This document shows positions 7,711-9,586 of a DNA stretch of 64,000 nt, piece by piece. Position 1 is the stretch's first letter; every line of letters starts with the position of its first letter. This DNA comes from Escherichia coli (GTDB taxonomy: Bacteria > Pseudomonadota > Gammaproteobacteria > Enterobacterales > Enterobacteriaceae): assembly GCF_003018255.1 (NCBI RefSeq), contig NZ_CP027440.1. The stretch is one strand, 5' to 3'. The notes beneath the pieces were generated by a model. That model worked only from the letters and a program-made list of their open reading frames with translations, was not told the DNA's origin and ran no database searches. The position numbers were made by a program, and so were the translations under genes.

Positions 7711-7741
7711 AAAAAAGGGCCGCCGGTCGGCAGCCCTTTTC
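7711..7741 (-). terminator. glmS rho-independent terminator (region of the Tn7 attachment site)
   Basis: GC-rich hairpin (GGGCCGCCGG / CGGCAGCCC arms) flanked by A/T runs just 3' of the glmS stop; attTn7 is known to lie about 25 bp downstream of glmS. Confidence 0.7.
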
Positions 7742-7756
7742 TATCAACGAGAGATA

Positions 7757-9586
7757 TTACTCAACCGTAACCGATTTCGCCAGGTTACGCGGCTGGTCAA
7801 CGTCGGTGCCTTTGATCAGCGCAACGTGGTAAGCCAGTAGCTGCAGCGGAACGGTGTAGAAGATTGGTGCAATCACCTCTTCCACATGCGGCATCTCAAT
7901 GATGTGCATGTTGTCACTGCTCACAAAACCCGCATCCTGATCGGCGAAGACATACAACTGACCGCCACGCGCGCGAACTTCTTCAATGTTAGATTTCAGT
8001 TTTTCCAACAACTCGTTATTCGGCGCAACGACGATAACCGGCATATCGGCGTCAATCAGCGCCAGCGGGCCGTGTTTCAGTTCGCCCGCAGCGTAGGCTT
8101 CAGCGTGAATGTAAGAGATCTCTTTCAGCTTCAATGCACCTTCCAGCGCGATTGGGTACTGATCGCCACGGCCCAGGAACAGCGCGTGATGTTTGTCAGA
8201 GAAATCTTCTGCCAGCGCTTCAATGCGTTTGTCCTGAGACAGCATCTGCTCAATACGGCTCGGCAGCGCCTGCAGACCATGCACAATGTCATGTTCAATG
8301 GAGGCATCCAGACCTTTCAGGCGAGACAGCTTCGCCACCAGCATCAACAGCACAGTTAACTGAGTGGTGAATGCTTTAGTGGATGCCACGCCGATTTCCG
8401 TACCGGCGTTGGTCATCAGCGCCAGATCGGATTCGCGCACCAGAGAAGAACCCGGAACGTTACAGATTGCCAGCGAACCAAGGTAACCCAGCTCTTTCGA
8501 CAGACGCAGGCCCGCCAGGGTATCCGCGGTTTCGCCAGACTGTGACAAGGTGATCATCAGGCTGTTACGACGCACGGCAGATTTGCGATAGCGGAATTCA
8601 GAGGCGATTTCGACGTCGCACGGAATACCTGCCAGCGATTCAAACCAGTAGCGGGAAACCATACCGGAGTTATAAGAAGTACCACAGGCGAGGATCTGAA
8701 TATGCTCAACCTTCGACAGCAGTTCGTCGGCGTTCGGTCCCAGCTCGCTTAAATCAACCTGACCGTGGCTGATGCGCCCGGTAAGGGTGTTTTTGATCGC
8801 GTTCGGTTGTTCGTAGATCTCTTTCTGCATGTAGTGACGGTAAATACCTTTATCGCCCGCGTCATATTGCAGATTGGATTCAATATCCTGACGTTTTACT
8901 TCCGCGCCAGTTTTATCGAAAATGTTTACCGAACGGCGAGTGATTTCCGCAATATCGCCCTCTTCAAGGAAGATAAAGCGACGAGTCACTGGCAACAGCG
9001 CCAGCTGGTCAGAAGCGATAAAGTTTTCGCCCATGCCCAGACCAATCACCAGCGGGCTACCAGAACGTGCCGCCAGCAGGGTATCCGGGTGACGGGAGTC
9101 CATGATCACTGTACCGTACGCACCACGCAGTTGCGGAATAGCACGCAGAACTGCCTCACGCAGAGTACCGCCTTGTTTCAGCTCCCAGTTCACCAAATGT
9201 GCAATCACTTCGGTGTCGGTTTCAGAAACGAAGGTATAGCCACGCGCTTTTAACTCTTCACGCAGCGGTTCATGGTTTTCGATGATGCCGTTATGCACCA
9301 CCACAATGTGTTCAGAAACATGCGGATGCGCGTTAGCTTCTGAAGGTTCACCGTGGGTCGCCCAGCGAGTATGAGCAATACCGGTGCCGCCATGCAGAGG
9401 ATGTTCTTCCGCTGCCTGAGCCAGCATCTGTACTTTACCGAGGCGACGCAGGCGGGTCATATGACCTTCTGCATCAACAACGGCCAGACCGGCAGAGTCA
9501 TATCCGCGGTATTCCAGACGACGTAAACCTTCAAGAAGGATTTCTGCTACATCACGTTGCGCGATCGCGCCAACAATTCCACACAT
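7757..9586 (-). CDS. glmS: Glutamine-fructose-6-phosphate aminotransferase GlmS
   Basis: 609-aa ORF beginning MCGIVGAIA (N-terminal Cys nucleophile) and ending VTVE; recognised as GlmS. Confidence 0.97.

Follow-up and report, generated by a model that had tools for sequence, protein, structure and literature searches.

The Escherichia coli attachment site of transposon Tn7, attTn7, is numbered from the middle of the 5-bp duplication (position 0), and TnsD reads positions +23 to +58, a stretch that encodes the active-site C-terminus of GlmS (Mitra et al. 2010, PMC2918618). Changes at +31, +33, +42, +43, +45, +51, and +54 strongly reduce TnsD binding, and Tn7 insertion requires no particular sequence at the insertion point itself (PMC2918618). 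In K-12, the splitting of the glmS terminator by Tn7 is long established (Gay et al. 1986, as cited in PMC2918618). On the far side of the junction, lpf fimbrial operons have been described between glmS and pstS, as has Tn7 at the same place (Okeke et al. 2010, PMC2990770). That study surveyed enteroaggregative E. coli by PCR, and its Tn7-positive strains carried no lpfA at the glmS–pstS site.

We examined this junction in a window of 64,000 nucleotides of E. coli chromosome running from pstA to wecA. Strain JNE23-011 is colinear with the window at 99.6% identity (64,000 versus 63,994 bases, with nine small gaps and no large insertion or deletion), an identity that rules out the window being exactly this strain, and the role of its genome was limited to the transfer of annotation. 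Features transferred in this way at 21548–21925 and 37723–42939 cover the mnmG–mioC spacer, where oriC is located in E. coli, and an rRNA operon with tRNA-Glu followed by tRNA-Asp and tRNA-Trp; these are core features unrelated to attTn7. Our data make it very likely that 7711–7800 holds a functional but empty attTn7, and that the lpfABCD-O113 operon beside it is a common allelic replacement of the K-12 glmS–pstS spacer rather than a transposon.

The glmS end and the predicted Tn7 target

The glmS coding sequence (609 aa; 7757–9586, minus strand) was assigned from the list of open reading frames, its Pfam SIS and GATase domains, and the annotation of the colinear, 99.6%-identical genome. Its stop codon, TAA, occupies 7759–7757 on the minus strand; on its own strand the gene ends in ...CCGCGTAACCTGGCGAAATCGGTTACGGTTGAGTAA, directly followed by TATCTCTCGTTGATAGAAAA, a hairpin, and then TTTTTT. 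We took att +23 as the last base of this stop codon, which makes each window coordinate 7734 plus the att position. The four substitutions given by Table 1 of PMC2918618 (+31 C, +42 T, +43 T, and +51 T, att strand) are all recovered under this numbering, which is therefore correct.

With this numbering, the TnsD-binding part of attTn7 (+23 to +58) lies at 7757–7792 on the minus strand, and alignment with the canonical site found agreement with K-12 at 35 of its 36 positions. None of the seven critical positions has changed, nor has any of the four at which changes have a modest effect, which bears out the initial annotation in placing a TnsD recognition sequence inside the glmS 3' end. The sole difference, at att +44 (7778), falls in the third base of an alanine codon (GCA to GCG, glmS strand). 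The same G is present in the Tn7-occupied strain SCU-105, and natural insertions of this kind suggest that the +44 G variant would still be bound by TnsD.

The predicted 5-bp target is GGGCT on the glmS strand (att −2 to +2; 7732–7736, minus strand), as indicated by the junctions of strains SCU-105 and 1EC213. It lies at +21 to +25 past the glmS stop, centred on +23, within the 5' arm of the hairpin. The site had been placed about 25 bp past the stop; its location stands, and the distance can now be given more precisely. Only one copy of this target is present in the window, so the site is empty, and the window contains no element there, in agreement with the proposal that attTn7 is unoccupied in this strain.

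Natural insertions show how the same site looks when filled. Of 5,426 complete E. coli genomes searched for the Tn7 left end, 118 contained it, and its chromosomal locations numbered 99. Among occupied records of the lpf type, strain SCU-105 is the closest: its glmS end, spacer, and hairpin are as in the window, its GlmS protein has the same accession as that of JNE23-011, and a complete 14,067-bp Tn7 (tnsABCDE with a class 2 integron) stands at the equivalent of 7732–7736 with GGGCT on both sides. Removal of the element and one GGGCT in silico restores an exact 170-nt match to window positions 7651–7820. Strain 1EC213, whose lpf allele is only ~89–91% identical to that of the window, carries a full Tn7 (tnsABCDE, intI2, dfrA1, and sat2) between glmS and lpfA-O113, again with a GGGCT duplication at +21 to +25 past the stop. 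The flanks in these two strains are thus identical (SCU-105) or homologous (1EC213) to the window on both sides, and what distinguishes them is the 14-kb Tn7 (tnsABCDE, intI2, dfrA1, sat2, and aadA1) with its duplicated GGGCT. Tn7 is therefore seen to use the site in the identical sequence of SCU-105, where a 5-bp duplication is present and the right end lies beside glmS; the window represents the empty state of that sequence.

More widely, at least 29 records have Tn7 in lpf-type sites with the left end joined at the same base, in several lpf alleles of 90.8% to 99.2% identity; these were counted as end-to-end matches, in one aligned piece, to a chimeric query made of the Tn7 left end and the window from 7736 downward. 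Tn7 thus stands beside lpf-O113 in at least 29 complete-genome records, in contrast to the Tn7-positive strains without lpfA of the PMC2990770 survey. The K-12-type junction was found in 55 genomes, and in a control strain of this type the Tn7 left end abuts GCGGGGCATTTTT and the duplication is GCGGG. Both duplications, GGGCT and GCGGG, lie at +21 to +25, the fixed distance past the glmS stop that attTn7 keeps whatever the local sequence. Occupancy was similar in the two backgrounds (~29 of 1,922 lpf-type genomes, 1.5%, versus ~55 of ~3,050 K-12-type genomes, 1.8%; Fisher p = 0.5), a rough comparison given that the genomes are not phylogenetically independent and that the counts may include a few engineered mini-Tn7 strains. 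The earlier view that the site remains available thus agrees with the complete Tn7 of SCU-105, whose flanks are identical, and with the occupied lpf-type genomes.

In a strain with this sequence, the terminal 36 bp of glmS (7757–7792) would be bound by TnsD, which would then recruit TnsC; TnsAB would next link both ends of Tn7 to staggered positions around 7734. Duplication of 7732–7736 (GGGCT) would follow on repair, the Tn7 right end would point toward glmS, and the insertion would part the two arms of the glmS terminator. The binding of TnsD and TnsC and the steps of this mechanism are drawn from published work, whereas our own analysis established the sequence identity and the hairpin, found no Tn7 parts, and located the natural insertions.

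A fimbrial segment with its own hairpin

Between the glmS stop and pstS, the window holds four chaperone-usher fimbrial genes and no others, all on the minus strand: lpfA, the major subunit (190 aa; 6878–7450; Pfam Fimbrial); lpfB, the chaperone (243 aa; 6099–6830; PapD_N and PapD_C); lpfC, the usher (840 aa; 3552–6074; Usher, PapC_N, and PapC_C); and an lpfD-like second fimbrial subunit (356 aa; 2471–3541; Fimbrial). The whole lpf-O113 operon (2471–7450) therefore contains each part of a chaperone-usher operon, namely a major subunit, a PapD-like chaperone, an usher, and a tip or minor subunit. RefSeq names in 98–100% identical genomes are lpfA-O113, lpfB-O113, lpfC-O113, and "fimbrial protein", and the lpf-O113 arrangement occurs in ~1,970 of the 5,426 complete genomes. 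The allele group of the window is ~89% identical over the locus to a commoner lpf-O113 allele, in which the fourth gene is named lpfD-O113; since that gene is called only a fimbrial protein here, the putative adhesin subunit seems to be the most diverged part of the operon. The lpf-O113 region of one genome 98% identical over the locus (NZ_CP145636.1, strain S1-ISR-02-A) has an annotated copy of IS1A, which represents another route of disruption.

The operon is carried in a segment of 5,426 bp (2329–7754) that has no homology to the K-12 glmS–pstS spacer, as judged by spacer reading and local alignment, and that stands in place of the 206 bp of that spacer. Homology to K-12 ends 2 nt past the glmS stop (att +20) and begins again at the Pho box TGTCATAAAACTGTCAT (window 2328 downward), at the edge of pstS with its conserved promoter and Pho-box region (1183–2328, minus strand; Pfam PBP_like_2, annotation, and alignment to K-12). 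When the K-12 spacer was aligned locally with both lpf-flanking spacers, the sole homology was the pstS promoter, from TGTCATAAAA onward; a similarity to K-12 that had been picked out by eye (ACCGTCATCTT...) gained no support from this alignment.

The 8-mer TATCTCTC occurs directly past the glmS stop in the window (7749–7756, minus strand) and, in K-12 (L001 530–537), directly before the Pho box TGTCATAAAA, at the opposite edge of the segment that was replaced. This position is taken by TCACTATC or TATTATTC in other lpf alleles, and the presence of TATCTCTC at both edges is therefore probably due to chance rather than a recombination scar.

Because K-12 homology ends only 2 nt past the stop, both the terminator and the insertion point lie within the lpf-linked segment. 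The recognition half of the site is thus core genome (glmS), and the insertion half is DNA inherited with the lpfABCD-O113 operon. In comparison with K-12 attTn7, the gene, the 36-bp TnsD site (save one wobble base), the target offset, the insertion inside a glmS terminator hairpin, and the orientation of Tn7 are all the same. What differs is the DNA from 2 nt past the stop onward, which is unrelated, together with the hairpin (GGGCTGCCGACCGGCGGCCC in the window versus GCCCTGCGTAAGCGGGGC in K-12), the duplication (GGGCT versus GCGGG), and the downstream neighbour (lpfA here, pstS in K-12).

The hairpin after glmS resembles an intrinsic terminator (7711–7740, minus strand; supported by folding and by inverted repeat I7). 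It consists of a stem-loop at 7717–7736, a U-tract at 7711–7716, and an A-run at 7737–7740, and reads on the glmS strand GGGCTGCC-GACC-GGCGGCCC (7736–7717) followed by UUUUUU (7716–7711), giving a G+C-rich stem of 8 bp, a 4-nt loop, and six U residues, 18–20 nt after the stop codon. The region folds at −28.6 kcal/mol, compared with −12.6 ± 2.6 kcal/mol for dinucleotide shuffles (z −6.27; none of 200 shuffles as stable). With a G+C-rich stem-loop and an immediate U-tract 3' of the stop codon, it has the form of an intrinsic terminator, and we predict that it terminates glmS transcription. A generic terminator scan did not detect this hairpin, probably because the flanking A and T runs lengthen the stem and consume the T-tail, and the region was then folded directly. 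A permissive Rfam search of 2100–10000 returned only two sub-threshold chance matches (22.6 and 21.7 bits, where the gathering scores are 50 and 75).

Homologous hairpins follow glmS in other lpf-O113 alleles and in the O157 lpf2 type, while the K-12 glmS terminator (GCCCTGCGTAAGCGGGGC) is not found in the window and shows no homology to the hairpin there. The initial annotation was thus right that a terminator hairpin is intact after glmS, but the structure belongs to the lpf-linked segment and is not the canonical K-12 terminator. The AT-rich fimbrial leader that it reported directly beyond the hairpin is confirmed: the 265 bp at 7451–7715, up to lpfA, have 21.5% G+C against 51% for the window, and the region upstream of lpfA-O113 delimited from composition and sequence (7451–7710, minus strand) has ~21%.

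The O157:H7 lpf2 locus (OI-154) shares with lpf-O113 its position, the gene order lpfA-B-C-D, and the homologous hairpin, and differs in its glmS–lpfA2 spacer (699 bp, versus 306 bp at 7451–7756 in the window) and in an extra lpfD copy. In O157-type lpf2 strains (strain 143, L007 15476–16174), the hairpin reads GGGCTGCCttttGGCGGCCC, with the loop TTTT instead of GACC, and its stem begins 2 nt further from the glmS stop than that of the window. Given the differences among the K-12, lpf-O113, and O157 lpf2 hairpins, the point where Tn7 inserts in E. coli has no fewer than three different sequences. A scan of genome contigs for the hairpin motif GGGCTGCCNNNNGGYGGCCCTTTT had unrelated terminators among the matches listed; GGGCTGCC-NNNN-GGCGGCCC-TTTT, for instance, occurs just upstream of pepB, and not at glmS, in E. 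albertii (L022 2294–2317) and Superficieibacter electus (L026 6092–6115). As a terminator form, this stem sequence recurs and is not peculiar to the glmS–lpf junction.

Transposon remnants and competing readings

Neither ends nor genes of a Tn7-family element were recovered. A position-weight matrix built from the seven TnsB sites of Tn7, whose true sites score 28–31 bits and all seven of which it recovered in SCU-105, gave a best score of 12.4 bits in the window (shuffled windows, 8.6–19) and no hit in 2224–7756, though very divergent ends could escape a matrix derived from Tn7 itself. No Tn7 end motif in the window therefore rises above the range of the shuffles. The terminal 12-mer of Tn7, TGTGGGCGGACA, is absent from the window, and the 8-mer TGTGGGCG occurs twice, about the chance expectation. 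In tblastn searches with TnsA–E, the best match in the window (E = 0.05) paired TnsC with the AAA ATPase yifB. The core transposition genes that an origin of the lpf segment in such an element calls for (tnsA, tnsB, and tnsC, plus tnsD/tniQ) were thus not found, and the annotation of the colinear genome consists entirely of lpf genes and named core genes.

Searches for repeats, which unlike the TnsB matrix are independent of the transposon family, were likewise negative. The two ends of the segment 2329–7754 are not paired by any terminal inverted repeat, and TGT...ACA termini with 22-bp TnsB repeats were not found; its boundaries show no 5-bp duplication (one 5-mer is shared, and 66% of random position pairs share as many), and the lpfD–pstS spacer contains no second GGGCT. 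Terminal repeats or a 5-bp duplication around the fimbrial operon, which the initial annotation had said would count against it, were therefore looked for and not found, and its statements that the window lacks Tn7-like end repeats and tns genes and that the neighbouring island is not of the Tn7 family are both upheld.

We considered whether the lpf operon could be the decayed cargo of an ancient Tn7-like element at attTn7 that has lost its tns genes and ends, the site now holding a fossil island. Reviews describe genomic islands forming at attTn7 in many bacteria, and the lpf segment directly follows glmS and is lower in G+C than the window (44% versus 51%). However, the non-homology begins at att +20 rather than at 0: the 20 nt that separate the stop from the insertion point already show no relation to K-12, and position 0 falls within an unbroken hairpin, which means that nothing has been inserted there. 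These two features indicate that the operon is not a TnsD-directed insertion, and the replacement of 206 bp, as opposed to a clean insertion, strengthens the conclusion that it is not of the Tn7 family. The segment also lacks TnsB-like repeats, a terminal inverted repeat, a 5-bp duplication, and Tns homologues, and many strains have Tn7 itself inserted between glmS and lpfA, so any target immunity is gone; we regard a fossil island here as very improbable. The same low probability attaches to a broader proposal, in which the K-12, lpf-O113, and O157 lpf2 post-glmS sequences would all reflect repeated Tn7-family insertion and imprecise loss at attTn7, with lpf the cargo of an erased transposon, or in which, in a milder form, the lpf-linked hairpin would make a distinct att variant with different effects on Tn7 capture or lpfA expression. 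Eroded Tn7-family cargo finds no positive support in our data and meets several points against it, and we hold it to be highly unlikely.

Two further readings, each slightly less probable still, concern the site itself. It could be present but disabled by the +44 change, which sits between the critical positions +43 and +45, or by the foreign terminator, which gives position 0 a target wholly different from that of K-12; the Tn7-positive enteroaggregative strains without lpfA at this site (PMC2990770) fit such a view. Natural insertions already contradict it, since SCU-105 carries Tn7 in exactly this sequence, +44 G included, and at least 29 lpf-type records contain Tn7, with an occupancy resembling that of K-12-type sites, and the insertion-point sequence is in any case dispensable (PMC2918618). 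The resemblance to attTn7 could instead be trivial, as every glmS 3' end looks alike, the TnsD site being conserved because it encodes the GlmS active-site C-terminus, and the hairpin could be a chance palindrome, its motif being found also at unrelated terminators such as that upstream of pepB in E. albertii. Against this scarcely credible combination stand a fold far stronger than its shuffles (z −6.3), the conservation of the hairpin across lpf-O113 alleles and the O157 lpf2 type, and the real use of the site by Tn7. An empty, functional attTn7 beside an allelic lpf replacement thus remains our preferred reading.

Implications for Tn7 insertion in lpf-bearing strains

The biology of this junction is ordinary and known, and the finding has little importance beyond annotation: the glmS-linked Tn7 site of this strain is free, and the lpf-O113 operon next to it is not a Tn7-family island but a common allelic replacement. 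The small refinement is that the terminator and insertion point are lpf-linked and not K-12 sequence. Tagging with mini-Tn7 should work in this background, with the element landing at 7732–7736 between glmS and lpfA. The locus offers a natural illustration of a known rule, in which TnsD reads the conserved end of glmS and the local sequence into which Tn7 inserts is of no consequence, such that two unrelated terminators take Tn7 at the same offset and at similar frequencies.
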